A stretch of DNA of 64,000 nt from Prorocentrum cordatum (GCA_963575745.1 CAUYUJ010000216.1:1-64000), one strand, 5' to 3'; counted from the first letter of the stretch, positions 32,581-62,745 are shown. The notes: generated from the letters alone by a model not told the origin. Numbers and translations: made by a program.

Positions 32581-32864
32581 CTTCTTCTCCTGGTTTGGCC
32601 CTGGAAGCCTCGACATATGCGCGCGTGCCCATCGGCGCGCCCAGGACTCATATCTTTTGTTCTGCTGCGGATTTGTCGTGTACCATGCGTTTGCCGCCCG
32701 TTGGGCCAGGCCTGGCGGGCTCAAATTTAGATGTTTCACATCGATGTGGCGAACCTCCGTTATAATTTCGCGCGCCAGTTCATAGATATTTACCGTGTCA
32801 GCCACAATGCAAACGACATATATGTCGTCCAGGTAGGAAATGACATGGAAATATGGCGGGAGGG
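32580..32864 (-). pseudogene. Decayed CRE-like RT fragment split by the Copia insertion (continues at 50816-50995)
   Basis: ISYLDDIY, EVRHIDV, PPGLAQRAANAW match the protein encoded at 58839-62471. Confidence 0.75.
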
Positions 32865-33061
32865 TGTGAATAGAACCCGTGTAATACCCTCATATATACT
32901 CCTTATCCTCACCTCTCCTGCGCCTGGCCGTTTGGGCTCAGGTATTGGGACAGATCGATCAGACCTTTGATCGCGCAGGAGGGAAAGACATCCATCTATC
33001 CCTCCTTCCCTCTACCAACGGATCAGGGGTTCTGTACCCTTGTACTTCAACCCCATACACA
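32865..33061 (+). repeat. 5' LTR
   Basis: TGTGAATAG...CCATACACA; 194/197 identical to 50619-50815. Confidence 0.97.
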
Positions 33062-33073
33062 GGTTATCAGCCC
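33062..33073 (+). promoter_or_regulatory. Primer-binding site of the half-tRNA (anticodon-arm) type
   Basis: GGTTATCAGCCC directly after the LTR, one base from the Ty5-type GGTTATGAGCCC, with no TGG start. Confidence 0.8.
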
Positions 33074-33515
33074 TTTAAAGCTCACCTTTCACCGAACCGC
33101 ACGTTGCGACCTCGCACGCGGTCTCGATGGAGCCCCTGCGGCGCATGCGCCGCAAGGGGTCCATCGGGGCCTCGCGTCCGAGCTCTCCGACGACACGACG
33201 GCTCGGTGACGAGTTGGAGAGCCTTAGTGCGGACTGTGTTGGCGTTCCAGATACCCCCCCAGCTCCGACGGACCCGAGGCGCGGCTAGCTGCTGAGCTCC
33301 ACCGCAGCGCCGCCCGCGGGGGGACAGGAGAAGGAGTAGTAACAGGAAGGAAGGAGTTCCACACGCCTACCTTCGATCCTCCATCCCCTCCCCCGTCGGG
33401 AGCAATCCCAACCGCGTCAGGCGAAAGCCCCACTGGTCATGACACTCCAGGGCGCTTTCGCGCTAACCGCCGATGGACCTCAGGTGCTGGCACCCCCAGC
33501 CCTGCGACCGTCTCC

Positions 33516-36500
33516 GTGGCGGAGCACGTAGCCACCTTCGAGGAACTCAGTAGACCAGCGGCGGCACAGCCGCAGACGCAGTACCCCAAGGTATCATCGG
33601 ATGAGACACCGCACACACATGGTCCGAGTCGCAGCTCGTCCGCGCGCAACCGCCGTGGAGCCCCAGGCCCATGCGGCGAGAGTAGGTCGAGTCCGCGTAC
33701 TGCCTCTCAGAGGCCATGCGCTCCCCGCGACAGGGGACACAGGGAAGCTGACGCTCCCCACCTCTCCATCTCAGACGACCAGCTGGCGGAAACGTCCGCC
33801 GCAGGTGAAATAGCTGAGCTCAGAGACCAGGTTGAAACCTTCGTGTCCAGGCAATACTCTGGACTACTGCAGAGCGTTCAGACGAACGCCGCCAATACTG
33901 CAGCCATACGCCACGATCTGGACGGCGCCTTAGGGATCATTGATTCCAGGATCGCCGAAGATCGACGCATCATAGGTGAACTGCAGTACCAGGTTGATCG
34001 TGAGGTGTCGCACTCAGGTGAACGAACGGCGATGGTCGAGAACCTGCGCAACTACCTCGCGCAGATGGAGCAACAGCTGGTGCTCGCACGCGACGCAGGC
34101 GTTTCAGCAGTCAGGATTTTACATGATGAGATCCAGGACCAGCTCCGCAACCGACCAACACCAGCCGAGGCCACCGACCTTGGCGACGTCCAGTCTCATA
34201 TCAATGATCTTCGATCTTATCTAGACCACACTACGGCGACGCTTCGCAACGAAGCACACACCAACTCGTCGAGCCTGATCGACATGTTGCAGCGTACTGA
34301 GAGAGTCATCACTCAAAGGCTTGGTGCGACCAACGCTGTCGTGCAGCCACTCGCTAACCGGATCTCTGACATCGAGCAGCGTTTTGCTGGTGTGCAGGAC
34401 GCCCTGGCAGAGTTGCGTGTCGGACGAGCCCAGACTGGCCAGCTGGATTTCCCTCCCACGGTTTACGATTTCGCCCGCCTCACTGACAGGTTGCAGGAGG
34501 TTGAGAAGGCGGCGGACCACACGCAGTTGGAGCTCTCCCAGGTTATTCGTGAAAGAGATACTGAGAAGGTACGTGTAGAGGGTCACCTCGCACGTCTGGA
34601 AAGCGAGCTGGAGGCACAAAGCGCCCGTCTCCGAGCACACGAACAACGACTTGATCGGTATTCACAACGTTCTCGGGATACTGATGAGTATACACGCCAA
34701 AAGGTGGCACAAATACACGAAGACATGACGAACTGGACGAATCAGCTGATCGACCACACCAACTACACCAATCTCCACCTTCGACCTGCAACCGACCTGC
34801 ACAGGCCGACGGCAGCGTCCGCCGAAGCAACACATGCCTCTGCAGGACAACAACGACGTACGTCACCAGGAGCAGCCTCCGCGGCAGCTTCTGCACAGAC
34901 ACGCCATGTGTCTCCTGTGCGCACAGAACCAACTACTGACGGTGCACCGATACCCTCACAACCATTGTCTGCGGTTTCGGTCCATACTACAACTCCTATC
35001 AAGGAGTCAGACACCGTCCGAGTCCCTGTCTTGCCTAAGATCACGCAGCTGCTCGAGTGGCAGCAAAAAGTACGGAAGAACTTCGGGGCCGCTTCAGGGC
35101 GACCATCCAAAGCGTGCGCCTTCCTATGCGTGGCTGAACAGCCCGAGTGTACATTCGAGGATTTACAAGACAGTGGAGACTTTGAGAGCATCGATTGCAA
35201 ACTCGCTACCGCTCTGAGCGACATCTTATCCTCGGACTTACGCTACCAAATCAGGCTCATCGAAACTAGAGAGCACAAAGCAGGACGCATGCTCAAAGGA
35301 CGCCAGATTTACTGGCGCATCCTCCAGTCCTACAAAGTGACAGAGGTTGACGACGACCTGCACGATTTCGAGCGCCTTAAAGAACTGAGGACGAGAGATG
35401 ACGATTTGCAACGTTTTATTACTGACTGGGACGCTTTACTCTTGGAGTGCCGAGAAGCACCCGATCCAAAGATCTTGGAATCGCTGTTTCGTACACAGAT
35501 TCGGAGACATGTATGGATGAAACAAGACATGTACGAATACCAGCGCATGAAGATCAGCGACCCGAATCGTACCTATGATTGGCTCCGGCAGCGTGTCCTG
35601 GACATACTGGAGCTTAAACAATTGGAGAATAATCAAAAACAAGTTACGGTACGAACATGAGACACGTTCTCAAGTCAACGTGTGCGCTGCCTGGAAGAAA
35701 GGCAATTGTCGCAATGGTGAACGGTGCAAGGCTTTGCATACATATTCCAGGGATTGGAAGAACAACGAATCTTCCAGAACGTCGACGGCTGGTGGCAACT
35801 CCCGCCGTAGTATGCCCACTCCTGCGAATCAAAATAAGCCAGCATCGAAACCATTTTGCTTCGATTTCGCCAAGCGCAACACATGTACCAGAGGCGACAA
35901 GTGCAACTTTCCACACGTCGCACAGTGTAAAGATTTCGCACAGAATAAGTGCCCCAGAGGCGACAAATGCAAATACGCTCATCTTACACCTGGTGCAAAG
36001 ACTCCTGAGCGAAGCCCGAGTCGACCACGGACCTCCAGCCAGGATAGCCGCGGCCGATCACCATCCCGCGGATCAGGAAGCCAACGTTCTTCACAACGCG
36101 GGGGGTTCCGCTACGCAAACGATCCACGCCATGGACGTGACAACCGACGCCAATGCGACCGATCTCGTTCAACATCCAGGAGGTCCCCAGACTCTCGCAG
36201 TCAATCGAGAAGTCGATACGACAGATCTTCGAGATCTACCTCCCGAGGGCGAGACAATCGTGGCGGCGGACGCGGTAGTCCACGCGGCCGTGATAGATCA
36301 TATGGCAGTGACAAAGGACGTGGCAGACGTTCCTTGAGTCATGGTTCGTCCCGTGGCTCACCCCACGCCAGAGCACGTTCTCCTGCCAACTTTCGACGTT
36401 CACGCCGTTCCGACCGCAGTTACGTCATCCGTGACAAGACCCTCATGGCCAACACTAAGGCCACAGCGACATCTACCAAAACACGTCGTCGGATACGCTT

Positions 36501-36666
36501 CGACATACGTAACGTGGAATATTATTTACATACTGTATCTGGCAGGGCCAGATTGGATAAATGGAAGGAGATGCCGAACGAGGGTGACATCGTCAATGTA
36601 CCAGACCCGTTACCACAACGATGGTGGGATCAAAGTGCAGACGCCCTACGAGAATGTCAACATTAG
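33516..36666 (+). pseudogene. gag: Copia Gag-like region: coiled coil, capsid-like region, three CCCH zinc fingers, RS-rich tract
   Basis: ORFs 33516-35660 and 35575-36666 joined by a frameshift. Fingers: CAAWKKGNCRNGERCKALH, CFDFAKRNTCTRGDKCNFPH, CKDFAQNKCPRGDKCKYAH. Confidence 0.75.
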
Positions 36667-39600
36667 GCACAACTATGGTACGACGACCTGTATGACTACC
36701 GACACAATAAAATGTCGGTGGACACACCAACTGCGATCCGAAAATATGACGACACTGTTAAGCAGTCATCAAAGACAGTGCAGACGAGGACAACGACAAT
36801 GCAAGTCGACCCACCACGCTCGACTGCTGCATTGACACGGTCTCGGGTTCTCGACAGTGTTTCTGTTCATCATATTCAGGGAAAACATGAACTAACGCAG
36901 ACCGAATCGGATCGCATATCTATTCGCGAAGAGCATATTCTGGAAACCGCCAATGGTGATCGTACTGTCAACGAGCACTATGACATACGGCTACCCGAGG
37001 TTGGCTTACACAGTTCAGCCCTTGCCTTGCCAGACTGTCCATCTTTACTATCAGTTGGGAAATTGATCGAGGTTGATGGTTTTCGGCAGCTTTGGGATCC
37101 TGGGCTGGGCTACTTGCTTCAGGATCCGGGTGGCCAATGGTATAAGATTCCAGTCAACAATAGAGTTCCAGAATTACGACTCGCCGACTTGACACTGATA
37201 CCACCACCACGTTTATGCACTTCGTCAGCACCCCGACGTCGTCAGCGCAAGCGTTCATCCGCCCGCTGCAACGACATTTGTTGGTGCTACAAAATTATAG
37301 AGCAGTCAACCACTGCAGAAGAGCTACGGCCCCACATAGGGGCCTGCCCCAAGAGACCACATGTCGGAGAGGGAGGAGGAGCACGGACCACCACGGTCGA
37401 AGAACCTCCCGACACAAACACAGACGAGCCTAACGTGGACACACCCACCGACTCGCCTACGTCTCAGACGCAGCGTCCTCCTCCACAATGCGGGGGGCTA
37501 GTAGATATGCTTCAAGCAAACGACATACCGACAGAGACGTCCACACGAATGCATTAAAGAGACGTCCACACGTCCACAGAGACGTCCGACAATGATCGAG
37601 TTCTCCCCAACAGACGGAAGAAACCGATCGACTCGATGCATTACATGACTCACAGCCCAAAACTCCCTGACTGTGAGATCTGTTCTCGCACGATGGCGCA
37701 GAATGCCCCGTGTAGACGACAGCGCAAACCACATCCACCGGCAGACCCCGCCGACGAGGATAACGCCTGCGAGGCTTTTGTCCCGAAGAAGTTTGGTGAG
37801 GCTTTAACTGCCGACCATATCGTCCTGGCCAAAGACGATGCCGCGGACAAACACGGCGACAAGTATGCACTTGTTGTCCTAGACAGATACACCGGCATCT
37901 TCATGGCCTACCCAGCACTACACAAAGACCCAGCTACCACAAAGGCATCCTTTCAACAGTTCACCGCCGCGAACGATGAGGTGAAGCATATCTATACAGA
38001 CAATTCTGGAGAGCTTCAGAAAGCTTGCCGCCAACTGGGATGGAGACACGACACGAGTACGCCACATCGTCCGCAAACGAATGGATTGATTGAGCGCGTC
38101 GTCAAAATTGTCATTCTCGGTGCGAGAGCTGTGTTACATATGTCTGGTCTGGGACACGAATGGTGGAAAGAGGACATGCAAGCCTTTTGCTGTGGACAAA
38201 ATTTTTTTGCATGCATCCGCGGGCGTGGCTGCCCTCAATGAGGAGCATGCAGATAAGACAGCTCATGACATGCGCTTTGGTGAAAGCTTCCCCGGGCACT
38301 GCATGCCATTCGGTGCTCGAATCTTCTGGAAATGCCTCAACCCCGAGATTAACAATGAGACTGCAAAGTTTAAAGAAAATGCTCGGGAAGGGTTATTCAT
38401 GGGTTACCACTTACATTCTGGTGGACGATGGTCAGGTGACTATCTTGTTTTGGATACGGCTACATACGTCAAGAACCCTGATGGTGAACTGTGCCGCGTG
38501 CACAGAATCAAAGACATCATCATCCCTGATGGCAAGTTCACCTACCCAGTGAAAGAAGGTACTCTACGACATTATAACCCTGAGGCACACGACGAGGTCA
38601 AGGCATCCACTTCTCGCCCCTTGGGTGATAAACCAATGCCCGATCCTCCACTTTCCTACCCTACGGAATGGGATGACCCATCTATGCTGACAACGGAGGA
38701 CAACGGCGCTGATATCCAAACATCGGCCTCTGAAGTTGCTGCACCAGCGCCGGGGCCCGACTACTGGGAACAGCGCGGATATTGCGTCATCAGACATATT
38801 CGTACCCCACGCAAGAAACTGTTCATCCCGACGGACGACGTCATGAACATGCCTGTACCTGTTGATCAACTCGATGTGACACGAGATTTCAAGACAACTT
38901 CTACTTTTGAAGGAGAAAGTGACTTTCGAGATGTTTGGGATGATGTTAGCGCCAACGACCACAGGGAGTTAAGCGAGCCGTGGACAGGCACGATTCAATT
39001 CTATGAGCTTCCAAAAATGACGCCAGACGGCCACATGGTGGTTCGCGGACGCGAGACGCGTATACAGACTACTAAACGTCCTGATCACATTCTTCCCGAG
39101 CATTGGAAAACACTCTCTCGTGGACAACAAATGAAGGAAATCGACTACGCCAACGACGTTAAACGGGCTCGTGAGATTCGTGACCGAGCTGCACTAAGAG
39201 TGTGGACAAGACAGGACAAACAGGTCAACAATTTCCGTGCCACTACATCTGGCGGACCCACATGGAATACTGTGGAACGACGGATTACATACGACACTGA
39301 CAATGGCGCCGTCATCCGTGATGAAAATGTCAAAGGCGTGACAAACAAAGAAATACTGCATGCCAAATTACCTGGTGGGCCACGTGACATTACTACGGTA
39401 CTGTACTACCGCCAATCACCACAACAGCACGATGGAGAAGAACGTGCTGTGGTACTTGTGGATAGTGAAGGAACCGACTTTGGGACCATGAACCCGCTCA
39501 TACGCCAGTTCGCCCAGTCGGTAGCAAGACCAACTATGCCACGTGAGACCACCTACATACTGGCACACAGGGATAAAATACCTGATTCCTCATGGTCACG

Positions 39601-41820
39601 CCCGGCACTAGTCACCAGAAACCTGAGTAGGAAAGAGGTTGCCGCATAACCACGTGCATAAGAAGCCCTACGAAAAGAATACGAGAGATTGGAACAGAAA
39701 CAAACGTGGATGTTGGAGACTGTTGCAGAAGAAGCTGATATTGAGTCACAAGCTATCCGCACTGGGACGAAAGTTCATTTCTTCAATATCTTAGAGTTAT
39801 CTTCAGTCAAACACGAGGAACTTCCACCTGATCTACGTAAATTCAAAGGCAGAGTGGTGGTTCAGGGCAATACAGGCAAAGATACAACTGGCTTGGCCGC
39901 AATATTCGCCGACGCCGCTTCCAGCGCTTCACATATTGAGGCTTCCAAACTTTGCGATGCTACTGCATTATTGCCACAATATGCGGGAGAACAAAGTGAT
40001 GCACCTGGAGCCTACACACACGCATTATTATACGGCGACGGACGAATCGATCCAGTTGATACTTGGATTACCATCCCTAAGTGGCGACAACCGACATCAT
40101 GGTCAAAATGCAAAAATCCAGTGAGCCGATTGCGATTGGCTCTATACGGACACCCTCTCGCAGGTGTCTTTTGGGAACGAAAATGCCGTACATGCTTAGA
40201 AAGCGTTGGTTTCGAGCCTATCTCAGGCTGGGAATGTGTATGGAGACACAACAAACTGGGACTGATATTTTCAGTATATGTGGATGACTTTAAATTAGCC
40301 GGCCCAGCTCACAATCTACAGACTGGCTGGGATTATATTCGCAAAAGCGGTATTGACTTGGATCCACCTACTCCATACTCACAATATCTTGGCTGTGGAC
40401 AACAGGCATATGAGGTACCGCAGACTATCTTCGACAAAAGAATGTCTACCATACGCCCTATGTTGCCCGTACACAATGAGGAAGATTACAACGCGGCCAA
40501 ACAAGTTCGTGGAATTCGACATGATATGCTTGGTTTTACCGATCAGTGCGTTGAGCGGTACCTGGAATGCGCCTCCAAGCGCGTCCAGGGACCAGGGTCA
40601 CGTCGGAAACGATCCGACTCGCCGAGGACTTCGCGACCCAAATCGCCTGCATCCTCCAGGTCGGTTGCCAGACCCACTAGTGTGCTCAATGCACGGCCGC
40701 GGTCATCCAGCCCAGCAAAATCGGTCGACACGACATCTACCACGACAGATCCCATACCCGTCACATACGATGATCTACCTGACGCCGAAACTCCTGACAT
40801 CGAGGACACCTCCTTCACTGATTCCGACTATTCCGACGAGGGCATCCTTGGCCAAGACGCGGCGAGTGTACTAATGAAGATCCTATACCTGGCACGTTGT
40901 TGTCGTTTCGATCTTCTACATCAAGTATGTATGCTGGCCAGAGAAATTACCAAATGGAATACTACGTGTGATAAACGTCTACATCGGTTGATATGCTACA
41001 TCAAAACGACGCGTGCACATTGTTTGCACGGATGGATAGGTGATTCGTCAGACAAGTTACCCATCATGCCCTTCACTGACGCCTCGTTCGCTGATTGCAT
41101 TACATCATCCAAATCCACTACCGGCGTTTTCGCCGCGCTTGTTGGACCCAATACGTTCTTTCCAGTCAACGCTGTATGTAAGAAACAAACGGTTGTCTCA
41201 CATTCATCTACTGAATCCGAGATCGTTGCTCTTGACTCAGCACTACGACTGGAAGGGTTACCGCTACTCTCATTCTGGGAAGCCGTGGTGGGAGTTGCCA
41301 AAACATGCAAAGATAAGAATACATGCCTGAGCTGCCATCGACACGCCGACCCGGCGATGTGTCCGACATTGGCAGCCAAAAAGAAGCGTAAGCCATCGCC
41401 TCGCAAGGCACCCCCTACACGGGGATCTTCTCCTAGCCGTAGGCAACTACCGCTAAATACGGAATTACCTACGCCTCCAAAGAGACGTACAATATCCCAT
41501 GAGGGTACAGTATTGCACGTGGATCCAGAACCAGTTCAGGAGATTTGTTCTCCCAAAGTGCGTCTTATCGTCCTCGAGGATAACCAGGCCGTGATCAAAA
41601 TTGTCCAAAAAGGACGTGCACCAGCACTTCGTCATCTTCATCGTACTCATCGTATCAACCTGGATTGGATATGCGAGACGTGCCAACTCGAGCATATCGA
41701 GCTCAAATACGTAGGCACAAAGGAGCAGATCGCAGATATGATGACCAAACATTTCGAGACGAAGAAAGCAGACCTTTGGAAGGATCTCTTGGAACACTCG
41801 CTCATCTTTCCCGCTACCCC
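36667..41820 (+). pseudogene. pol: Copia Pol (protease, integrase, RT, RNase H), disrupted
   Basis: PR: VLDSVS..H, ETANG, LLSVGKL. IN: HYMTH..CEIC, TADH, YTDNSGE, NGLIER. RT: KFKGRVVVQG, QSDAPGAY, LYGHP, VYVDDF. RH: FTDASFA, SSTESE, LEDNQA, IADMMTK. Stops at 37555, 39647 and 39659; frameshift ~38220. Confidence 0.95.
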
Positions 41821-43469
41821 GATACAGTGTCCTCCAAAGAAACCCTGGAAACCACTGCGAGGGCCTCGGAGGCCCGATGGTTTACCTCGCGTTGCGGAAC
41901 CTCCAAAACTGGATGGATGCCCAGAAGTATGCAGAATATCACTGACAGAAAAAGAAAGATGGGGCGAAGTAGGATCAGAATGTGGATTTCGGTGTGTTGG
42001 GCAATCCAATCACGAGGGAATACGCGCATGCATGTACCACATTGGCGCACCGGCCGCAGCTATTGCGTCGCGCACACCTCGTTCACGAACACGTTTCCCG
42101 CACGGTAGACATCCCCGCCATCCTCCCTCGCCTCCACAACATGCAGAGAGATTTAGAACATTACTTATACGTTCATGCCGCAGCAATTTTACGACTCGAG
42201 CTACAAAGCTTACAGGCATTATGTTCGCCACGTGCGAGGCGAAAATAAGCGAGATCGGTTCTAATCCCGATACCCCCATCCACGAGATGGATCAGGCACA
42301 GCCGCTGAACCTCATCGGCTGGCCCATCGGCCACGACGTTGGGTACGACTCGAACGCCAAGGACGACGACCGCGTGGGCTTCACGTACCACGCTCAAACT
42401 GGCCGTCTTCGTGATCCTGATGATGGTTACATATACATACATCAACGGCGTGCTGATCGCAGTGGAGAGTTTGATCTCCGCGTACCCGACGAATCCACTG
42501 TTCGAGAAATTACCCGCTCTGCGTCCGCCGACGTCAAGAGTTGGATCAATGACACGAATGGATCAGTCGGCGGCGACGCCAACTATGACTACAGCACGTT
42601 TACGGCTACACCGTGGCTGTCACTCATGCGGGCTATGTGTATGCTTTCCAGTCTCTTCAATCGTAATCCGTCTGTGCAAGAAAGTGTTCGTGGTTTACAT
42701 GATCATTTGAACGCGGTGATCCCAGGAACGCACCGCAAGTGCCCACCAGAGAACTTTACGACGATGATATTGAAAACGGAGTGGATGATGATTCGCAACG
42801 ATTGGTCCAAGATTGGCAGTGCAGTACTGGGACAGTATGCCGAGGACAGCGTTATACTATTCAAATGGTCTTTGTGCACCATCCGATGTATACAGCAATG
42901 GATTGATAACTCCATGCTATGCTCCTAAACTTGATCGTACAACGGCCAAGTTACCTACACGCCCACCTGGCGTAGCCAGGACATCAGATACATCTGGACA
43001 CACCGGCCACATTGTTCAGGATAATTTGGTCACCAACATGAGAGCATTTTCCGACCTTAACAAAACGAGCAAATTTCGCCGCAAGTTCACCACATGGTTG
43101 ACGGCGCGCGGAGGCTTTGGAGGTATCGGATCATACTCCAAGACGGTGGCAACACCATCCGATCATCCAGAAGGCTGGGTGGCAATATCAGAGCATGACG
43201 GGGATATGACAAGTACCTATCGCTGGCAACCATACAACGAGGGCAACGACTTCTTTGGCGAAGCCGCTGACCAGATCGACCCTGGTCTTACCCCTGGCCC
43301 TGATGTTGACCCACTCGAGCTGGACCAAGCAACGTGCAGCGCTTTCTGTGGTGGTCGTTTGGTTTCTACTCTTCTTTCAGATAATGGGTGGTGTTCCCTC
43401 GTACAAGAAGACTTGGGACTACTCTTGCATCATGCATTTGGCCCATCAGGGCACGCATGCAAATTGGCC

Positions 43470-44520
43470 AACTTATATACCGACTCAACGTGGATTATGC
43501 AGGCCAAGAAAGGGGCCAAGAGTGCAAAACACAAGAAGTACCAAACTTACGGCATCGACGAGCTCAACACTGCACAGAAGCGAGAAGATCTCGCCAAGGC
43601 ATCAAACGTTGCTCTCGTACCGCTATTTATGCCGTGCCTCAACCGCGCGGAATGCATGGGCGGCGCTACTCTCGAGCATTTGTCGACCATGATCCGCGAC
43701 GACATCATGATGTGGGCATTCTCCTTTGGCAATTATAAAGAATGGTTCAGACAGAACGACGCGCCGATCGGCCAAGATTGCGTTCGATTGCCAGAGGCTG
43801 GTGGAGACACCCGCTATGGTATGGAGGAGCTGCGTAACCAGCGTTTCGATACACAGGAAGCCCGTACCACAGCTATTCTCAACAACCAGTTTGAGTGCAC
43901 CCTCGAGCAGCGCAACATGATCAAGATGATCCGCGAAGCCAGAGGCCTCATGTTACACAGCGACAATGCCTCCATCAAAAAGTGGCGCGAGTTAAACGAG
44001 ACTATCTGGAGCTACTGGGCCAATGATTTTCCAGCATTTGTGAAACAAAGACATTATTGCAGGGGCCTCAATGCCATGGTGGTATGGAGCGCGAATGACA
44101 TCGCATGCGCCAACCACGGACAGAACACCGTGGACATGCGTCGACATCAAATTCGTGCACCTACTGACGTATACGAGCTCCAGAAAATGGAATGTGAGGG
44201 TGGCGTCCCGACGCTCATGCCAGTACACGTACACGTGGACGTATCACGTTTTGTCGATGTGATGCAGTACTTCCGCTGTCCCACAGTCATGGGGCCTGGC
44301 AAAGCAGCACAATGGGGCGTACACCCGAACTTTGATCACCACACGAACGACCTGATCAATATTATGCAAAATCGTGGTACCACTGTTCTTCCATCAGATC
44401 ACTGGGTTGGAGCGTACGATAGGATTACCCCGCAGGCTTGGCATGCAAAACAGAACAACCATAACATGGCGATGTTTACAACACAGTTCTGCGACGCAGT
44501 ATGCTATCGTAACTTTTGCG
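43470..44520 (+). CDS. SGNH/GDSL hydrolase-like domain within the Copia accessory region
   Basis: Block-like motifs in order: LYTDST (43473), MGGATL, VVWSANDI (~44080), VMGPG, AWH (44442). The block V Asp is not evident. Confidence 0.45.
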
Positions 44521-45839
44521 CTTTGATTCAGTCACTGCCCTCTCAACCATATCCATTCAGGGCGCCATTACTGATTCCTGTCACGGATGAGCAGGCCTAC
44601 GCACAGGCCAAAGAGATCATGGCTGCTCTCGACTTCAGAGAAAAGATGACAAACGAATGGAAAAGAGATCTCAGCCTCACGACGCTAATGACACAGACGG
44701 CAAGCGAAATGGCTCATTGTGCGTGGATGGCATCATGTGCCGATGGTACGTTGCTGGCATCACTGCCTGCTGACGCAGGCGACACAACGGAACCTATTCC
44801 TGGAATGCCGAAACGGACACCAGCACCTGATCCTAGCGAGCCAGACAAGGCTATCCCTGAAAATGATCCATGGGGTGTAGCATACGACGACTTATTCCAG
44901 TACCTCATGATGTTGATCAACGACTACCCTGGGGCTTGGGCATCCTGGCATTCAGTCGAGAAACAAGAGCTCCTCCACCCCAAGATCATTAAAACGGTTG
45001 AAGATGCACATGCAGTTACTTGGGTTGTGTTCGAGCAGTTTTTACAACAGATTACTGACTTGGATGGCGATGATAACGCGACCAAATCACGACTCAATGC
45101 GGAAAACAACAGGTTGACTTCTCACTGTATCGGCCCTGCTGCCGAGAACGAGCGGACCATCATAGCATGCAAAACATTCTTCAGGCAGAATGCACTAGAT
45201 CGCGTGGCATTGGGATATGATCCTGATGTTCCGACGTCCGTGTGGCGCGCGGCGGCTGATACAGAACAGCCAGCCCCACCAGGCCCATTGCCTGAACCAC
45301 TGCAGCCTGGACCGCAATTGATAGACGTGCCACAGTCATCGACTCCTGGACCAACAGCAGACCAGCAGCCAGCAGATCAGCTCCCAAAAGCTGAGGCGGT
45401 ACCGATCCCTGACGACGGCACTGACCTAGAGGCCATGGAGCTGGAGGCAACTCCTGCCGAAGAGGAATCTTCTCCACATGAGATGAATTTATTATCATGG
45501 CAGGACAGCTGCGAGCGTTCCATGTATGAGGACATCAGCCAGGCCGGGATGTTCGATAACGCATGCACTATTCGAGAGTGGAAGCTGCAAGCGGGCATCA
45601 AGGACGACCATCCATACGTATGTCCATTATTGCGGGGTACATCCGCGATCAATGGATTCGCCTGCCTGGAAAACAATGACTGGTACGAGCAACTGTTACA
45701 CGATGATTGTGTGATTGCTCACGCGCCTGACATTGCACAGTCTGGTTGCTTTCCAGAATGGAGGTGGATATCGTTACCAAATTACGACGACGTACGTTAT
45801 GGTCCCGAGTTACTTGATGATGAATGGCTGGGAGCAACC

Positions 45840-46670
45840 AAATACATGAGCAAAGACATCACGACCATGTTCCGCCACGAGATTCACTACAAAAAGTTCT
45901 ATATCAATCAATTTCACGATAGACGTATCAACATTTGGACGAAAACAACAGATCGTGAATGGAAGATTCCAAGCAATTGGAAACCCTTTCAGGAAATGGT
46001 TCAATGGAAATTCAAAGATCGCAATAACCACAACGGGCCGTCCATGGACGCGGCCGTGTCACACTTCAAGAAAGATGGTGAGAATGATGGATATGCCGAT
46101 TGGAACGATTATTACCCGATCTTCATCATTCGTGCGTTCGAGAAACATATTGATCCGCAGAAAATAGAATTGAGATATACGCCAAACCAATCCCCGAGGG
46201 AGGTGACCCCAGCTGTTTCGATTGGAACAGCGTCATTGCCATACGATGTGTTGGGGGTCACAGTTGCGTTAATCCACTTTCCAAACCATGGAATATGGGC
46301 TGGGAGAGCCTACAATGGACAGACGTGAAATACCTCCACCACGGCACAGCAGCCCGTGCTTGGCGCAACATCTTGAAGACAGGGATCATTCCAGGCTACG
46401 TTGATCCATCTTCTCAGAGAGACAAGCATCATAAACCATCACAGCGCACGGAGGCATTCTTCAGTTCCAGCACATATCTAGACAATGTCCAGAATAATCC
46501 CCACACCTCAGTAGAGTCATATAAGTTCTATCACTACAAGAGGCCGAGCTAGTGATCAATATGGAGATCGCCACAAAAGCAGGTTGCAGATTTTGGCTGG
46601 GCGCTCAAGGCGCTATCATGACAGAGGACGTGGTTCCAGCTGCGGCAGTTATTGCAATTCGCCGCCTCAA
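45840..46670 (+). pseudogene. TPT1: Tpt1/KptA-like NAD-dependent RNA 2'-phosphotransferase domain (two frameshifts)
   Basis: N-lobe: SKDITTMFRH and IIRA. C-lobe: YLHHGT..AWRNILKTGI..R.EAFFS and INMEIATKAGCRFWLGAQGAIMTEDVVP. These follow the Tpt1/KptA motif order. Confidence 0.75.
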
Positions 46671-49600
46671 ACCACATCACATGCACGGCCAGCAGATATG
46701 GCCAGACGGCGCCACATGGGATTACCCGCCATTGGCCGCGAGACCGCCATTGAGCAAATACGAGATTTGCGCCTATCTTCCTGGAGAGTTCGTCGAAGAC
46801 CCTCCTGGGATTGCACCTGCTGGCACGGATCAGAACATGGAGCAGCCAAGGACAACGTCAGCATCAGCACCTTCGGCTCAGCTGGGGGCAACCCCTGCTA
46901 GCCGTATATCTGGAGCCGATGCCTTGGATGAGCAAGTGGTCCGTGCTATGATTGCGGACACCAATCACAAAGCAGATGATACAGAATGGTTAATTGCCCT
47001 GTCATACTGCCGAGAAGCTCTTCGACCTATTACATCAAATATTACACAAAAAGATTGGGGTCGTCGGCCTGCATTTAATGATGTTCGCATGGGGGACTTC
47101 ATTATCATTAAGAATTGGGGGTCTATCAATTGTTATCATTACGACAACCACTACCCCAAAGGCAATCACAATACCAAGGTCCCCATGAATAAGGGCCACA
47201 TATATGGCCCAATCATTCATTTCGGAGTCTTTGACAAGTTCTTCGCGGTACAGATACCTATTCTCAACTACGGTTTACGATGGGTAAACATATGGTACAC
47301 TGACAAAAGCATGCCTCTCAAGGGCGTTGTCTTTGCATCACCAATTCGTATCGGCGAACATGCCATTGACCCGACATATATGAATACTGTCCTGGAGGGA
47401 CCATCCTCATGCCGTGACAAAATACTTCAGCACAAAACTGATGGCAGTCTGCCATATCTTGGTATGCCGAGCATTTATAGGCCACGCATTCCACGTACAC
47501 CGACTAGACAGCCCGCTCCTCGGGCACCCGATCCCGAAGAGCTGGTGGCCACACCTGCTGAAGATGCCGCTCCTACGGACGATGGACCTCAACAAACTGC
47601 AGGCTCATCTGATGAACCTTTGGATGCCGTTGTCGTGGATATATCAAACATATCGCCCACCGCTGAAGAAAAAGCAGCAAATGACAATATGAGAACAGAT
47701 CTATCAGCAGAGATCCAAGCAGACGAGCACGTTGATGCGAGCATACCCGACAACGTTTTTGACCCGCCAGAAGACTTCCTCAACCACTCAGACTACGACC
47801 CAGAGGAGGATTCAAGGTGGGTTAAACAGTCATACGACCGCCGCATATACCGCTGGACGTCGGAGTTTGTTGGTGGCTTCACCTGTGATAAAGATGAAAC
47901 AAATCATTGAGGTACACACTGGCGCGGACAGAATTGTGGTTGATAAAACACAATCGCACTTACGATTTGAGATTCAATTTGGATCCAAAGCATGGAATAC
48001 AGAGAAATACTATTTGAATTATGATCACACCTACAAATTGGCACGCGACTTGCCAATTTGCAGTGCAGGCCGCTTTTTCAAAAAGTTGGTACACTACCTG
48101 GACCCAGAGACCATCGAGGAGTCGACTACAGGCGTCTTTCAATGGATCTCCAAAGTATACCAAAACATATTGATGGACAGTATTGCGGAGCTTCGTGACT
48201 TCACAAAAGATGACATCCATCAGAAACATCCTGCACTCCAAACGTTGCGTGATCTATTTAAACATTGCATCGACACATTCGGTAATCCAGACTTCCCCGT
48301 ATGGAAGGAACTGGTGGAAACACCTGCCGCGCCACGTGACCCAGGCGCGGAGCAGGATATTCCCCAGGCCCCAGGCAGCGTTGCATCCGCAGCTCCTGAC
48401 CAAGAAACCATGGTACGGATCATAGCCGAGCAGACGGGAGTCAACCGCGAGGAGGGCGACAACGAGTCCGCCTTGCAAGAGAAGGCTCGCCGTCTCCGTA
48501 CTGAAAACGTAGGCCATGGTGATACCGAGGATGCGGACAACGACACAACAGAGCACATAGGACTGCCAGGGGAAAGATTGTCTAGGATCGAGATCGAGGG
48601 ATTGAGTAGATCAATCGCTTCCCGACCGAATGCCGAGATCAACCGCGCAGCCATGGATCAGATCGGCCGTAGTCTTGCTCGTGGTCAGGATACTCGCTGG
48701 GGATCTCGCGAGCACCTCGCGACGGAGGGAGCCCCAGAAACGATCCTGCATGATATCGCGCGATGTCGGAATTGCGGTCGAGACTTATCCCTTGGGATCG
48801 TCACAGGTGATGGTGCCCTTTGTGACAGCTGTTGGCAGTACACCGTGGCCGTAGGTGCTACGGGTAAAAGTACCGCCGTCCAGAGCGACCTAGCATACCT
48901 CCACAAGCTGACCAACTGGATCAAGATGACGCTCTCCCAGGATGACATCACGAGGTACATGAGAGACGGAGCGCAAGTCATTATGACGGGCGCGCGCTCA
49001 TTCCCAGGTAATGAGAAAGATTCGCTGAGGAGAATGGCTAATGTGTCTAGGAAGAGGTATCAGAAGTGGGTCGACTCTGGTCGCCCTCCTGCACACGAGC
49101 GCAGACTGATGGGCGAGGCTGGTGACGACAGACCTCTGTACTACCCATATGCCAATCTCGTTCAGCGCTTTCTCAACGATTTGAAGTTCCACCACCAAAT
49201 GACAGGCGCTCGCGTGAACGTGGGCAAGAAAGCCTGGAACGTGGACGACATGCGTGATGCATGCACGATCCTCGATGCCAGCATCAGGACAGGACAAGCT
49301 GGTCGGAAGAAATGGTGACTGAACGAGGGCAGACCCGACAGGCAAACGCGGCAGGCTCTCGGACTTGTCACGATTCGATTGCCCTCCCTAGAAGGGATGG
49401 CACCCGTGAGAAAGTCACGCAGCGCAAGCTTGCTGCGATTGCTAACGAATTGTTGGGCTCCCTCGATCCGTCACATACCGACCAGAGGGGGGTTGATTCA
49501 GGGATGAGAACCGATCTGATCGAACCTGATACACACTCCCATCAGTCTGATGGTGCCATGGAGCCGCGCCATCCGCCGCCGCCGCCGCGCCCTGCCCCCG

Positions 49601-50600
49601 GCGATGCTGCACAGCCCAGCGCCTCTGGCGCGGCGGACCACATGCCCGCGGGGCCGCGCGCCAAGAGAGCGCGTACCGCAGATTACGCCGCCTACTGGCG
49701 CGACGACCTTGAGGACAGTCATTGGGGTCTCAGGTATTGGAGCTACTACATCAACTGTTGGATCTACATCGCGATGAACAACGACGAGTTCGTATACATC
49801 CACGACGTCCAGTACAACGATTGGTTTCGTCACTGGATCCCGAGGACATATTGGGATACGTTCGCGACGAGCTACGTGACGCACGATGGCCAGAGGATGC
49901 GGGGCCGCAGGTTCTACAATAACGGCAACGCGTAGAGAGTCGGCCGCAAGGCCCACCGCTCAAAGGCTGGAACTTCATTATAATTCAAGTTCGCCTTGAG
50001 CGGTGGCTATTACATACTTCTAGGCCACTTCACTATACAACACAAGTGGCCACATATACAAACATCTTTTGCGATAACCGAGGCAGCCTCCTAAGGAGCA
50101 ACGCCAACGGGGGTCGCCAAATAGAATTTATATACATGCAGCTTTCGTGTTTATCAACGCGACATTTCGTCTGGCCAGACATTTGCTTTTACATGTAGTT
50201 GCGTTCCGTGGCACGATCGTGTTCATCAACGCGATCTTAGCATGCATATTCATTGCAGTATAACTACATTGCGCTGAGAATAATCTGACAGCTGGTGGCA
50301 ACACCTGCCTCGCAAAGGCGAGGCAGATTACAAGTTGCTTTATTGCTCAGATCTTCTTTCTCCGCCCACCCTTGTCTCATTCTTCTCCGCCCTCGAGTGC
50401 CGGGGCGTTTTGGGGGGCGCACCGAGGGGGCACCAAAGCGTGCTTGGCGAAGATATCGGGGCCCAGGGTGTTCCTTCTTACCTTACTTTGCAGCTGAGGC
50501 TCTACTGAATTTAAGCTCAGCTGCCTGCAGACCTAAGGATTAAAGGAGTAAAAGGGTGACGGATTCTTTTCCTCTGTTCCCGAGTCCTACCCTCGCGGGC

Positions 50601-50618
50601 GGGATTCGGGACGGGGGG
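50601..50618 (+). promoter_or_regulatory. Polypurine tract
   Basis: GGGATTCGGGACGGGGGG immediately before the 3' LTR. Confidence 0.75.
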
Positions 50619-50815
50619 TGTGAATAGAACCCGTGTAATACCCTCATATACACTCCTTATCCTCACCTCTCCTGCGCCTGGCCGTTTGGGCTCAGGTATT
50701 GGGACAGATCGATCAGACCTTTGATCGTGCAGGAGGGAAAGACATCCATCTATCCCTCCTTCCCTCTACCAACGGATCAGGGGTTCTGTGCCCTTGTACT
50801 TCAACCCCATACACA
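50619..50815 (+). repeat. 3' LTR
   Basis: Direct repeat of 32865-33061, followed by the GAGGG TSD. Confidence 0.97.
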
Positions 50816-50998
50816 GAGGGTACGTCCTAAGGCCAAATAGAAAATTGCCGGCTTTCGGGCGTGGTTCTGTTCCCCCGCAAGTCCTTTATTGCGTCGCGTA
50901 AACCTTGTCGTTGTAACCTTTCCGTTTGCGTATTGATTGATTGTGCCAATTAAGAAAAAGTAGCATCCGATGAAACTCGCGTGCGCTTCAGTCCACAG

Positions 50999-51554
50999 TT
51001 TTTTTTTTTCTCTTCCCCGGCGTCGTTTTCACATATCAGCTAGCTCCAAGGCTCATTTGAAAACGGAAAACTGCGAAATGAGGCTGAAACGGAAGATACG
51101 GTAAGCAGCGTCAGAGGAGGATCGGGGGGAGGAGGAAGAGGAGGAAAAGAAAAAGAAGAATCTATAAGAGAGAATAAATAAGAATAATCATAATAAGAAG
51201 ACGAAGGATAATAATACGAAACAGACGAAAGAAGAAAGACACATAATAGTAATACGACGAATAAGGAATACTCCTAAGAATAATACGACTAAGAAGAATA
51301 ATATTAGTAAAATGAAGAAAAATAGGAATATTAAAAAACAGAAAACGAATAATACGAATAACAATAATCATAATACAGAAGAATAATACAAACAATAAGA
51401 AGAAGACGAAGAATAATAATATATAGAATAGTAAGAATAATAATACTAATAATACAAATAATACTCATAAGACAAAAAAAAAAAATAAGGAGGAGAGGAG
51501 GAGGAGGAGGAGGAGGAGGAGGAGGAGGAGGAGGAGGAGGAGGAAGAGGGGGAG

Positions 51555-51586
<32 letters not shown>

Positions 51587-51960
51587 GGAGGAGGAGAAGG
51601 AAAGGGAGGAGGAAGAGGAGGAGGAGGAGGACAAGCGGACCATAAAAGGAGAGAAAAACAGTCAGCCCGTAGGTGACCACAAGCAATTCATCCAGGGGGC
51701 ATGCGGGGTCACCTTATCTTGTTGGTAGGTTGGCACGTTCATGGAGCATGGCGTGCGCCACTGACCGTTGTAGGGTTATCCTTGAAAATTCCATCACCAA
51801 TTCCCTTCGCCACATTAAGGCATGGGACGACGAGGTCAAAACGTCGTTTTTTTCCGGATAGCTTATTGTCGTAGTAGGCGTTTCACATTTCGGTCGGGGA
51901 TGACCACGATTAATTCGGAATTTATATCGGAAAGATAGCGAGGCAAATCTATGGGTGCAT
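50999..51960 (-). mobile_element. 5'-truncated 3' end of a CRE-like element with an expanded low-complexity 3' UTR and poly(A)
   Basis: Minus-strand TLQRSVAHAML...PACPLDELLVV matches the C-termini at 57085 and 62508. It is followed by (CCT)n/(TAT,CTT)n and a poly(A) read as T at 50999-51009. Confidence 0.65.
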
Positions 51961-56918: not shown

Positions 56919-58808
56919 TTTTTTTTTTTTTTTTTGCCATCCCCCGCATCGGACACGAAGCGACGCTGTGCAAGGCTATGCCCGAAAACCTGGCATAGGT
57001 GAAACGCGGCGCAGCGAACAGCCTAAGCAGCGCCAAAGGAGGAGGAGGAGGAGGAGGAGGAGGAAGGAGCGGGCTACCGCCGGACTAAATCACTTCCAAT
57101 TCGTCCAGCGGGCATGCGGGCTCGAGAAGGCTCACCGGCAGGTCAGAATATGGTTGGAGGATTTGGTTCGCCACCGACCGTTGTAGTACGATCCCCAGAA
57201 TGCCCCACCATCTGTGTAGGAGTCCTAACGCAGTCCCTCTTCGGATAGCCCCTGGCAGCGCCCGGCATCGTTCACGTGCGAGCGCGGGCACGAGCGTCAC
57301 TGCTTGCTTCCCCCATCTTCCGTACGTCTCTGATCCAAGGCATTGCAGCGACCCCAATCCCGTAGATACCACTTCCGAATAGTTTGCATTGTTCTCCCGC
57401 TCTGCTGTTTCCATCAGCCGCCCCCCTCTGTTACTCGTCCCTGCCCTCGGGGCCCCGTTCCCGCTGATTGGATGCATAATTGTCACGTCGCAGAATAGGG
57501 GAATACCATGTTCCACGTGAAGCCCCGGAACAATGAGGTCCAAACGCCTTTGATCATTGGAGGGGACGGGGACGTGCGTATGAGCCAGCATCCGCTCTAC
57601 GTTCCTGTCGGGGATAATCCCTCCAGCTTCCGTGAACACTTGCCTCCACGCTCCTACCATAGCAGTATGCCGTGCATTTAGCCTCCCATAGTGGTTCGTA
57701 GTCATGGTAGAGTATCCATGGGGGTCCCCTCCATCAAAAACCACTGCAATTCCCAACCGTCGCCGTATTGCACAAAGCATTTGTGGATTATCCATTGCCA
57801 GCGTGGGAGTCGTAGGGCAGATAGTTAACCAAATAGCTGCATAGGGCCCCATACACGCATAGATTCGAGTTTTGCCGGCCGTTGCGGCATTCCTCCGGGC
57901 ATCTGGTCCCCCACCCAGTTGTTGAAGCAAATTGTTATGAGATTGTTTTTCGAAGTGGTCCGAAGCGTGAAATTGCCACCCATGTGTCCATTCGCCCAAA
58001 GCTAGCGGTTGCTCTGGTGGTGCGGGGGGTCTCTCACCCGCTGCCACCTGGGCCCACGTGGGGCGATCGCGCCATCCAGCGTTGCTGCATATTTGTCCGC
58101 TGCGCTCCGCTTCGACCACACAGTCGGGGTAATTGTGCCCTGCTGGAATATCCCCACCAGATACGGTATCGAAGTGGTGTCGGATATCCCTTCCTATCTC
58201 GGGGAATGCGCGGGTCAAGTTATGCAACGAATCAGCCCAGCTTGCCCAGTAAGCTGCCGGAGAAAGCCTCGTGGAGTCCGTGAGGCCAAGGCCAGCGTAG
58301 CGGAGGGGGAGCGTAGCTTGTGCAACCCAGGTGGCATAAGAAACTCCATGCAAGATGCGATCCCAATTGTCTGGACCTGGGATGCCGAATAGCTCGCTGA
58401 ACGTTGTTAGCACGTTGCGGTCGTGTGTAGCCGCTGCCTCCCTGGACTGGGATGGCGGCGTCGTCCGGAGTAAGTGGTTGAGCCGCGGCACTGCACAGTA
58501 GTATAGTAGGAGCCACGCCATTTGTAGTGAAGGGAGCTTCGGTAAAATGTGTAATAGCTTCGCCTTCGCTGCAGCCTGCGCGTTTCCGAATTCTGCCACG
58601 TATGCATGTGTGCCAAATGGTGACCCTAAGACCCGTATTCCTTGTTCCGCCTCTGGCTTGTCGTAGACCCATGCTGTAGCGCCCCGTGCGTGCAAACCTG
58701 GGGGACAGGGATTGCGGTTTTTGCTCCATGCCGCCAATTTGCCGATGTTGACATCGATATGGCATGTTCCTCGGAGGGTGGCCCGGATAGCGTCATACAC
58801 ATTAGCCA
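56919..58808 (-). mobile_element. 3' part of a CRE-like RT-RLE element (copy B); ORF ends at 57085, then 3' UTR and poly(A)17
   Basis: VLGSPFG, LPLRYAGLGL, YWASWA, RH, RRLDLIV, FCDVT, ETYGRW; T17 at 56919-56935. Confidence 0.9.
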
Positions 58809-61800: not shown

Positions 61801-62745
61801 TGGATAACAAGACTATGTCTTGTGCCATCCGCCGCCGGATTGGTATTGCTGTCAAATATGACGGCCGGGACCCGCATGGCCATGCCGTAATGACAACAAA
61901 CCATAATGGAAGGCTCAACTCAAGACATACGCAAATGGTGAATGCGCGGCGACAGGTTCTAATGGAAGCAGGGGGGCAGATACCAGACAGAAGTGTGGGA
62001 CGCTTACTCCGAGAAACGCACATACCGATCCCAGCAGGCGACGATCGACGGCTAGATCTTATTGTTCCTGGGCTCAATGTCGATCGAGGGTTGCCACTCT
62101 TCTGCGACGTTACTGTGGTATCTCCCCTTGCACGCACGGGAGGCCCGCGCTACGGAACAAGCAACAGAGGTGGGAAGATGTTGGAAAGGGCCGAACAAGA
62201 CAACAATGTGACTTATCACGACGTTATTTCAACGGGACTGGGGTCACTACAGTGTCTGGGGGCAGAGGTGTTTGGAAGATGGGGCAAACAACCCGTGCGG
62301 TTACTGCCCGCACTGGCCAAGGAACGGTGCAGGTACCTACATGTGCGAATACGGCGGGGCACAACATTGGGCCTTCTACACAGATGGTGGGGGCTCCTTG
62401 GCTACTCTGCAAAAAGCCGTAAGCCACATGGTGCTGGAGGAGTGGTCAGATATCCCGACTCTGAGGCTTGAAGCCCCCTGCCCGCTGGACGAGCTCGTTG
62501 TCCTGTAGGCTGGAGGGGGCGCCTTCCCTCCTCCTCCTCCTCCTCCTCCTCCTCCTCCTCCTCCTCCTCCTCCTCCTCCTCCTCCTCCTCCTCCTCCTCC
62601 TCCTCCTCCTCCTCCTCCTTTTCCCTGCTTAGCCGCGCGCCGGGGCTGTGCAGGTTCCGTCGTGTTTCACCCCGTTTGCGTTTAGCGAATGGCACTTGGA
62701 GGTGTATGTGTGTGGGCTGCGCTGCGGGGGGGGGGGGGGGGGAAA
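58806..62745 (+). mobile_element. 5'-truncated CRE-like RT-RLE non-LTR retrotransposon (copy A)
   Basis: One long ORF, then a 3' UTR with (CCT)n at ~62527-62618, ending in a G run plus AAA. Confidence 0.9.
58839..62508 (+). CDS. RT plus restriction-like endonuclease protein (one frameshift near 62400)
   Basis: VRGISSGDTFRRL, SIDGVGAFDH, GEQGDALMP, AYLDDVY, VLGAPMG, RRLDLIV, FCDVT, EVFGRW. The C-terminus CPLDELVVL is in the 62272-62508 frame. Confidence 0.9.

Follow-up and report, generated by a model that had tools for sequence, protein, structure and literature searches.

The 64,000-nucleotide stretch analysed here, hereafter the window (Prorocentrum cordatum, GCA_963575745.1, CAUYUJ010000216.1:1-64000; positions are counted from its first letter), carries at 32865-50815 a long terminal repeat (LTR) retrotransposon of 17,951 bp, with an internal region of 17,557 bp and a coding span of about 5,570 codons. 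A repeat finder run on the window reported a single direct-repeat pair, 204 nt long at a spacing of 17,754 bp, which alignment trimmed to two 197-bp LTRs with TGTG..ACACA ends and 3 mismatches (98.5% identity), and the 5-mer GAGGG adjoins the outer edge of both LTRs as a perfect 5-bp target-site duplication (TSD). The LTRs and the TSD described by a first-pass annotation of the sequence were thus borne out by the alignment and the flanking bases. A sequence like a primer binding site (PBS), GGTTATCAGCCC, begins one base past the 5' LTR and a polypurine-like tract, GGGCGGGATTCGGGACGGGGGG, precedes the 3' LTR, both at the positions expected for an LTR element; the former may correspond to the tRNA-Met(i) primer site of Copia elements. 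The features of the element are collected in Table 1.

Eleven open reading frames (ORFs) of the element were scanned with Pfam and NCBIfam hidden Markov models (HMMs) using the family cut-offs, and 6 of the 11 gave no Pfam family at E<=0.01. The CCCH fingers, of which Pfam marks two or three, hold the position at which a CCHC knuckle is the usual feature of Copia Gag, and an Arg/Ser/Gly-rich stretch of about 150 residues lies downstream of them. Residues 58-146 of the protease-region ORF align to the part of P0067 that matches an aspartyl-protease Pfam family, the motif here being LDSVS. The integrase core match (rve, 37558-38241) stands upstream of the ORF with the RVT_2 reverse transcriptase (RT; 39662-42928), and both integrase pieces are covered by single ORFs in P0006, P0015, P0022, P0023 and others. 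The RVT_2 match scored 24.4 bits, under the cut-off of 31.6, and metagenome proteins yielded 84 homologues of the RT/RNase H ORF (30-46% identity, E down to 3.7e-144), the best of which are mostly annotated as PF07727; in several of these relatives a single ORF encodes protease, integrase, RT and RNase H, in Copia order. Because protease, integrase, RVT_2 RT and RNase H stand in that order here as well, the element is, judged by its predicted domains, a member of Ty1/Copia, and the position of the integrase before RVT_2 together with the total span agrees with the giant Copia element first proposed for this locus.

On the + strand, stop-to-stop ORFs cover 33228-49935 without a gap, with 7 frame changes and 4 in-frame stops (TAG at 36664 and TAA at 37555, 39647 and 39659), and a fifth possible stop, TGA at 49316, lies near the last frame break. 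This map reproduced the gapless tiling by sense ORFs and the number of frameshifts and stops noted earlier, whereas a start at 33516 was not confirmed, the codon there being GTG. Homology to the RT/RNase H of the relatives stops at residue ~696-741 of the 1088-aa ORF (~41.75-41.9 kb), and the same ORF remains open to 42925, ~1.05 kb past that point, in agreement with the earlier observation that RNase H runs on in frame for more than 1 kb into the accessory region. A chance origin of ORFs of 1088 and 1178 codons in DNA of 50% G+C is impossible. The relatives of the RT ORF are continuous at the integrase frameshift and at the stops at 37555, 39647 and 39659, and these interruptions are therefore lesions of this copy or of its family. 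The locus is a decayed, broken copy of a retrotransposon.

Table 1. Features of the element, with positions in the window
Feature	Position	Strand	Remarks
TSD GAGGG, 5' side	32860..32864	+	same 5-mer beyond 3' LTR
5' LTR, 197 bp, TG..CA	32865..33061	+	194/197 identity to 3' LTR
PBS-like GGTTATCAGCCC	33062..33073	+	adjoins 5' LTR
ORF1, gag-like, coiled-coil-rich, 810 codons	33228..35660	+	frame 2; sub-threshold coiled-coil-type matches only; high contig depth
ORF	35551..36666	+	frame 0
A5 run, meeting point of ORF1 (frame 2) and ORF2 (frame 0)	35635..35639	+	removal of one A fuses the frames
Three tandem CCCH zinc fingers	35683..35982	+	zf-CCCH 48.7 bits (cut-off 20.5); zf_CCCH_4 E 5.4e-13
Protease-region ORF	36667..37557	+	frame 0; bounded by stops 36664 and 37555
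Integrase, frameshift at 38090-38241	37558..39649	+	rve E 4.3e-6, 27.4 bits (cut-off 32.6)
ORF	37558..38241	+	frame 0
ORF	38090..39649	+	frame 1
ORF	39662..42928	+	frame 1
RVT_2 RT and RNase H, two low-complexity inserts	39662..41885	+	RVT_2 (PF07727) E 2.5e-5
RNase H ORF continuation: Pro/Arg-rich linker, then first cargo domain from ~42.27 kb	41886..42925	+	uninterrupted ORF
ORF, 1178 codons	42792..46328	+	frame 2
Frame break, RNase H ORF / 1178-codon ORF	42836..42870	+	relatives read through in one frame
SGNH/GDSL-like alpha/beta domain	43473..44519	+	weak structure matches, block-like residues
Block-I-like LYTDS	43473..43487	+	SGNH-like motif
WSAND	44085..44099	+	SGNH-like motif
W-H	44436..44444	+	SGNH-like motif
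Cargo domain without family	44859..45281	+	fragments P0089, P0096, P0113 and others, 61-81% identity
Tpt1/KptA-like domain, over three frames	45849..46638	+	weak library matches, ordered motifs
SKDITTMFRH	45849..45878	+	Tpt1-like motif
DRR	45915..45938	+	Tpt1-like motif
ORF, 132 aa	46154..46552	+	frame 1
A4 run at break 42792-46328 / 46154-46552	46158..46161	+	sister copies with one more A
IAIRCVGGHS	46235..46264	+	Tpt1-like motif
YLHHGT	46331..46348	+	Tpt1-like motif
ORF	46525..47910	+	frame 0
C-terminal lobe	46549..46638	+	part of Tpt1-like domain
Cargo domain without family	46942..47484	+	P0236 82% identical over ORF residues 263-449
ORF, 541 aa	47693..49318	+	frame 1
Cargo domain without family	47867..48322	+	P0216-P0221, 47-81% identity; in frame with previous ORF in P0236
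CxxC..CxxC zinc-ribbon-like motif, then helical domain to 49315	48764..48832	+	P0222-P0230, 75-89% identity
Last ORF: Pro-rich linker, Trp/Tyr-rich C-terminal tail from 49678	49258..49935	+	frame 0; ends coding span
Non-coding 3' region	49936..50596	+	without long sense ORF
Polypurine-like tract GGGCGGGATTCGGGACGGGGGG	50597..50618	+	abuts 3' LTR
3' LTR	50619..50815	+	pair of 5' LTR
TSD GAGGG, 3' side	50816..50820	+	same 5-mer before 5' LTR

The region between RNase H and the end of the coding span is referred to below as the cargo, and its relation to Pol was followed in homologous proteins and in contigs of four public runs (X1, X2, X3 and X6, from four studies) aligned to the element at a likeness of at least 88%. 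P0085 (749 aa, 40% identity), whose ORF fills an entire contig of 2,265 nt, matches in one frame residues 890-1060 of the RNase H ORF with its residues 17-204 and then residues 5-555 of the 1178-aa ORF, and P0135, P0158 and P0198 likewise cross the break between these two ORFs; two sister contigs contain 14 extra bases within 42836-43002, which is the shift needed to join the frames. The 1178-aa ORF and the following ORF, which weakly resembles the RNA 2'-phosphotransferase Tpt1/KptA, are joined in one frame in P0168 and P0204, and one additional A at 46160, found in 17% (X1) and 20% (X2) of contig depth, gives ..DPQKNRIEIY.. as in these two proteins. Finally, P0236 crosses the break between 46525-47910 and 47693-49318 in one frame. 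Because relatives read across four of the breaks of the window in one frame, a single giant frame of Pol and cargo is most likely the ancestral state, and a frame of 749 codons that is open at 40% identity points to long-term constraint on the cargo. The co-translation of the accessory region with Pol suggested by the first-pass annotation is hence supported by these relatives and by the matching indels. We consider it probable that the locus is a decayed insertion of a high-copy, giant Ty1/Copia family, most likely of a dinoflagellate, in which an ancestral Pol-cargo frame encoded a string of modules.

A number of observations weigh against this interpretation, beginning with the way in which the continuity was assembled, namely from short fragments and one 749-aa relative. 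The break at 46525-46552, inside the Tpt1-like domain, is crossed only by weak collinear likeness to a second, distant lineage described below (E 0.016-0.07). A 5-base deletion at 49371, present in 36-66% of sister depth, would fuse frame 1 (open at 49319-49507) to the last ORF, but this repair of the last break requires that other copies lack the TGA at 49316. At 46160, 80-100% of sister depth keeps the state of the window, and at the A5 run at 35635 a 1-base deletion occurs in 17% (X1), 31% (X2), 32% (X3) and 100% (X6) of contig depth, so that 69-83% of depth in X1-X3 keeps the state of the window. Both of these sites are A-runs at which most sister depth retains the shifted state, as might be seen if the cargo were native to the element but not co-translated with Pol, its expression relying on splicing, internal transcripts or programmed frameshifts, and Copia and Ty1 elements tune their Gag:Pol ratio by frameshift or splicing. 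A programmed Gag/Pol shift at the 35635 A5 run is possible, and its length polymorphism could mark either a site of decay or one of programmed or transcriptional slippage. However, sister fragments stay in one frame at 42.8 kb, at 46.16 kb and across 47.7-47.9 kb, the second lineage has unbroken ORFs of up to 2,839 aa that contain RT and tail, and a 14-base indel is no slippery site; we thus regard separate expression of the cargo as unlikely.

The contigs of X1, X2, X3 and X6 cover 30 of 30 bins of the element and, since every bin is covered, the cargo is repeated, multi-copy DNA. Yet the mean contig depth over 42.5-50.4 kb was only 26%, 39%, 42% and 37%, respectively, of that over 33.3-42.5 kb, with bin 47364-47974 lower still, and the contig scans revealed no intact full-length sister copy; either copies without cargo, faster divergence of the cargo or subfamilies common in gag-pol only would account for the low depth. 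In addition, the nearest RT relatives (the P0001 group) stop at most 60 residues past RNase H, which contig ends may explain. The fall in depth, beginning near 42.5 kb, and the early end of the closest RT relatives are also what a foreign origin of the 8 kb past RNase H predicts, either as a nested element or as transduced host genes without a role in retrotransposition, and a dinoflagellate gene model, P0191, is ~30% identical to part of the Tpt1-like region. Self-comparison of the element, however, found only the LTRs and a 78-nt leader palindrome repeated, and within 41.5-50.7 kb there was no inverted repeat and no second TSD, the direct repeats consisting of one chance-level 29-nt pair. 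Thus the region showed none of the termini or duplications of its own by which the first-pass annotation would have recognised a nested insertion, and paralogues of the 11 ORFs were not found elsewhere in the window. Because it is without internal termini, lies in sense orientation and is multi-copy in four runs, the region is not a nested insertion. It also has a frame in common with RNase H in the window and is open in relatives as distant as 40% identity, and motifs of the same kinds occur past RNase H in the distant Copia lineage, which together make a foreign cargo very improbable.

Searches with the cargo ORFs returned mainly short relatives. For the 1178-aa ORF, a full HMMER search gave 131 relatives at E<=0.001 and 23 at <=1e-30, mostly fragments of 60-250 aa with 40-87% identity, while the 541-aa ORF had 21 relatives, all among shorter proteins and none among proteins of near length. 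Sister loci were found neither in metagenome contigs, searched with the 1178-aa ORF and the 24-nt LTR start, nor in viral contigs. The differences between the window and the sister contigs are mostly transitions, as mutational decay predicts. This bears on the suspicion that the size and the frame breaks are assembly artefacts, arising from a chimeric join or from homopolymer errors, which are typical of long-read assemblies, and 2 of the 7 frame breaks do fall in A4/A5 runs. Nevertheless, matched LTRs and a perfect TSD frame the full 17,951 bp, each bin is matched by independent contigs from four studies, and neither the four in-frame stops nor the 14-base and 5-base indels are homopolymer errors, so that an artefact is exceedingly hard to credit.

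Cargo-like sequence past RNase H was also encountered in other Copia relatives. The RNase H end is reached by 77 of the 84 RT relatives, 52 of the 77 run on for at least 150 residues, and 43 of these 52 have in common a conserved tail exceeding 1,100 residues. This second lineage is represented by proteins of ENA metagenome contigs (P0037, P0081, P0082, P0238, P0239 and P0241), and its cluster mates include single ORFs of 1,947, 2,023 and 2,839 aa that contain RVT_2. In an RT/RNase H tree of metagenome proteins and the window (68 rows; 67 of the 84 homologues, the 17 spanning <450 residues being excluded), the second lineage formed a clade of 38 rows with 100% SH-aLRT, and the window fell outside this clade on a long branch. 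The consensus of the second lineage contains SKRVINILRH, KRRF, LRALQGHS, YIYHVGS and a VFSDS...FNDI pair; LRALQGHS occurred in all 9 of the second-lineage proteins that were long enough and in none of the shuffled sequences. Pfam recognises neither the Tpt1-type motifs nor the VFSDS block of this lineage, and its profile had no PDB sequence match. In hhalign, the motifs of the 130-aa Tpt1-like piece of the window aligned to the second lineage (E 0.023). Speaking against a relation are the SGNH-like alignment of the element, for which hhalign gave a probability of 0.3%, and an HMM of 37 second-lineage tails, which had no match in the element. In two distant lineages, then, modules of the same kinds would lie behind RNase H, either by common descent or by repeated gain.

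The Tpt1/KptA-like domain of the cargo was indicated by weak matches in three libraries. PF01885 was the top Pfam match of the 132-aa ORF (E 0.0068, 16.9 bits versus a cut-off of 26), and the three NCBIfam matches were all RNA 2'-phosphotransferase equivalogs (E 0.04-0.12, 12-13.5 bits versus cut-offs of 231-239). In the Atlas, the three best named clusters were Tpt1 and the fourth was the Arr ADP-ribosyltransferase, at scores of 0.77-0.80 that serve as a lead only. The order of motifs in the Tpt1 family is an SKxLSxxLRH-like motif, (K/R)R, an IRAxQGHS-like motif, (Y/H)HGT and a C-terminal lobe, which matches the order in the element; the catalytic residues of the family are Arg-His...Arg...Arg. 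Among relatives, the Ser, Arg and His of SKDITTMFRH are conserved in 15/15, 12/12 and 11/12 proteins, respectively, and R1045 of DRR in 13/13; IAIRCVGGHS and YLHHGT are kept in P0204 and IAIRCVG in P0168, with QRTEAFF and the C-terminal lobe in the next frame. Compared to cellular Tpt1/KptA, which it resembles in its ordered motifs and top-ranking family models, the domain scores far under the cut-offs, has ~75 extra residues between the N-terminal and NAD lobes, and lies inside a putative retrotransposon polyprotein. Against the assignment, no HMM match of any cargo domain in Pfam or NCBIfam reaches its family cut-off, the Tpt1-like region had no PDB sequence match, and the sister fragment P0204 had no Pfam match. 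A model of residues 895-1122 of the 1178-aa ORF, the N-terminal part of the domain, was unusable at a predicted local distance difference test (pLDDT) value of 53. The Tpt1-like domain noted in the first pass is accordingly supported in part, by its motif order and library ranks but not by its scores. An Atlas likeness of residues 895-1178 to ssDNA-virus capsid clusters (0.90) was set aside on its low recognition (1101).

The gene model P0191 (Prorocentrum cordatum / Polarella glacialis), with WD40 and cyclic-nucleotide phosphodiesterase domains, resembles the Tpt1-like N-lobe over its residues 72-208 (~30% identity), and could be a chimeric gene model that holds a fragment of the element.

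For the SGNH/GDSL-like domain, residues 181-660 of the 1178-aa ORF were modelled with AlphaFold from a 34-row alignment; the mean pLDDT was 64, with 80-95 in the core and a poorly modelled block I strand. Among the 50 rows listed by an exhaustive VIA search, 21 cover model residues 26-410 (Z 5.7-6.9 over 137-178 residues, root-mean-square deviation 3.5-4.9), and the titles of 17 of these 21 name GDSL/SGNH, lipase, esterase or O-acetyl enzymes; the other 29 match the terminal long helix only. The catalytic S, G, N and H of SGNH enzymes lie in four conserved blocks (PMC5408684), and of the block-like residues of the element [YF][TS]DS is conserved in 3 of the 4 sequences covering it, N435 in 12/12 and H551 in 13/13, with Asp at position -3 of the His in only 4/13. 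However, Foldseek found no match to the model at E<=0.001 in PDB or BFVD, all of the VIA matches are below a Z of 8, where a match can reflect a common arrangement, and 43332-44771 had no Pfam match (E up to 5) and no NCBIfam match (E up to 1). The accessory SGNH-like domain proposed earlier thus retains middling fold matches and conserved block-like residues, without an HMM match.

The remaining cargo domains, the zinc ribbon and the aromatic tail were not assigned to any family by the Pfam and NCBIfam scans. The matches of the zinc-ribbon-like motif to DZR_2 (E 0.039), zf-FPG_IleRS and Zn_ribbon_Nudix were all sub-threshold, leaving the zinc finger of the first annotation with a Pfam hint only, whereas the aromatic tail was seen as described, rich in Trp and Tyr. 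None of the 11 ORFs has a membrane segment, defined as a 19-residue window at a Kyte-Doolittle value >=1.6, and the cargo is therefore not an env. In this it differs from env-bearing Copia elements of the Sirevirus type, which have an extra post-pol ORF with transmembrane segments; here there is neither, and the cargo is in frame with Pol.

From the arrangement of the putative domains, the ancestral frame would have spanned the CCCH-finger region, protease, integrase, RT and RNase H and then ~2,700 more codons, with its start possibly in Gag, or with Gag reached through a shift at the A-run. The extension would consist of conserved modules set between Pro-rich or acidic linkers: an N-terminal domain without assigned function, the SGNH/GDSL-like module, the Tpt1/KptA-like module, three or more modules without family, the zinc ribbon and the aromatic tail. 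The LTR and TSD structure, the Copia domain order, the multi-copy state of the cargo and its one-frame continuity over four breaks in relatives were observed; we infer the identities of the domains, their proteolytic processing, their packaging and all of their biochemical roles. The cargo would be made within the Gag-Pol polyprotein, probably released by the protease of the element itself and taken into the virus-like particle. There the Tpt1/KptA-like module, which would have the ADP-ribosyltransferase fold and be of the NAD-dependent RNA 2'-phosphotransferase type, would have as its substrates the ends or 2'-phosphates of element RNA, primer tRNA or cDNA, while the esterase-like module would play an auxiliary role, as proposed for the esterases of long interspersed nuclear elements (LINEs) and rotifer LTR elements. 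Such functions of the cargo domains are plausible as judged from sequence. More tentatively, and with greater doubt than belief, we speculate that the element belongs to an old 'mega-Copia' clade of dinoflagellates and marine protists in which Pol is fused to working Tpt1-type and SGNH-type enzymes that are packaged and needed for replication, in repair or capping of RNA, tRNA or cDNA ends. If so, an RNA-repair enzyme would for the first time be a regular component of a retrotransposon polyprotein, and ~5,500 codons would place that polyprotein among the longest of retroelements; if the modules are active, retroelements would recruit an RNA-end chemistry not linked to them in the open-access literature searched.

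In that literature, no account of a Copia element carrying cargo of this kind was found. The SmTCL1-4 Copia elements of Symbiodinium microadriaticum are ~10 kb long, with RT, integrase, RNase H and LTRs described (PMC5776459). The present element resembles them in having short LTRs, a 5-bp TSD, an integrase ahead of RT (RVT_2 type) and RNase H, many copies and a probable dinoflagellate host, and differs in its 17.6-kb internal region, ~2,700 codons past RNase H and CCCH fingers in place of a CCHC knuckle. A GDSL esterase occurs in the LTR elements Vesta and Juno of bdelloid rotifers, in Terminons and in CR1/L2/RTEX LINEs (PMC5408684, PMC6431247), which likewise combine SGNH/GDSL-type accessory cargo with a very large coding capacity and for which an auxiliary role in replication or membrane contact has been proposed. 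Those elements are Ty3/Gypsy-like, Penelope-like or LINEs, and their esterase is a separate ORF3 or ORF1 with S-G-N-H intact; here, in contrast, the esterase-like domain continues the frame of a Copia RNase H, is recognised only by a weak fold match and block-like motifs, and has a Tpt1-like neighbour.

Transcription, reverse transcription and packaging are thought to cap LTR retrotransposons at ~10 kb (PMC6431247), and a Copia family whose internal region reaches 17.6 kb between tiny LTRs, with a ~5,500-codon frame, stretches this limit. Ogre of plants and Burro of planarians, giant Ty3/Gypsy-like LTR elements (Ogre with LTRs of 1.9-6.5 kb and separate extra ORFs; PMC6431247), are similarly far above it and have extra coding capacity without known function, whereas the present element is of Copia type with 197-bp LTRs and cargo fused to Pol. 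The word 'Copia' has 0 occurrences in this giant-transposon review (PMC6431247). In Symbiodinium, DNA methyltransferase (DNMT) cargo has been described in LINE-like and tyrosine-recombinase elements, and the abundant Copia elements there are stated to lack a DNMT domain (PMC5890265); these are, as the present element probably is, dinoflagellate retroelements with a host-type enzyme domain, although the cargo here is another one and the element of Copia type. A giant cargo-bearing Copia bears on the large, repeat-rich genomes of dinoflagellates.

Regarding the host, near-perfect copies of the dinoflagellate spliced leader (PMC2606063) were found on the + strand at 1310-1332 (22/23) and 15128-15149 (21/22, one inserted base), with none expected by chance, upstream of the long + ORFs 1459-3186 and 2697-6779 and 15321-16403, respectively. 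They resemble leader relics of retroposed mRNAs and point to a dinoflagellate host. One cargo relative is a Prorocentrum/Polarella protein. At odds with the spliced-leader evidence, 20 of the 21 relatives of the 541-aa ORF (47693-49315) are labelled eukprot Pyramimonas_sp., a green alga, which may reflect mislabelling, contamination or horizontal spread. A green-alga host was tentatively set aside on the two spliced-leader relics in the window.

Some further features were observed in and around the element. The 5' leader contains an imperfect 78-nt palindrome (80%) at 33108-33185. Both LTRs contain GCCGTTTGGGCTCAGGT (32927-32943 and 50681-50697), which is similar to the 3' portion of the spliced leader together with its GT (15/18 with one gap); the likeness is weak, an equal score being reached in 12/2000 shuffles and in 3/310 window tiles. 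Hairpins with GNRA tetraloops and stems >=5 numbered 2 on the sense strand versus 0.72 +/- 0.78 in 100 shuffles, and those with stems >=4 numbered 13 on the sense and 4 on the antisense strand, giving no clear enrichment in the element. Purine-rich microsatellites of (GGA)n and AAT/AAG-type units occupy 51091-51654, ~300 bp downstream of the insertion. On the + strand of 711-8196 lies a run of long sense ORFs (661, 575, 1360, 230 and 253 codons) without a Pfam family and with an A-over-T skew as in the Copia element, which could represent a retrogene or a further large mobile element. A 1221-codon ORF at 58806-62471 on the + strand, with an RVT_1 reverse transcriptase (E 1.9e-10), represents a second, non-Copia retroelement.

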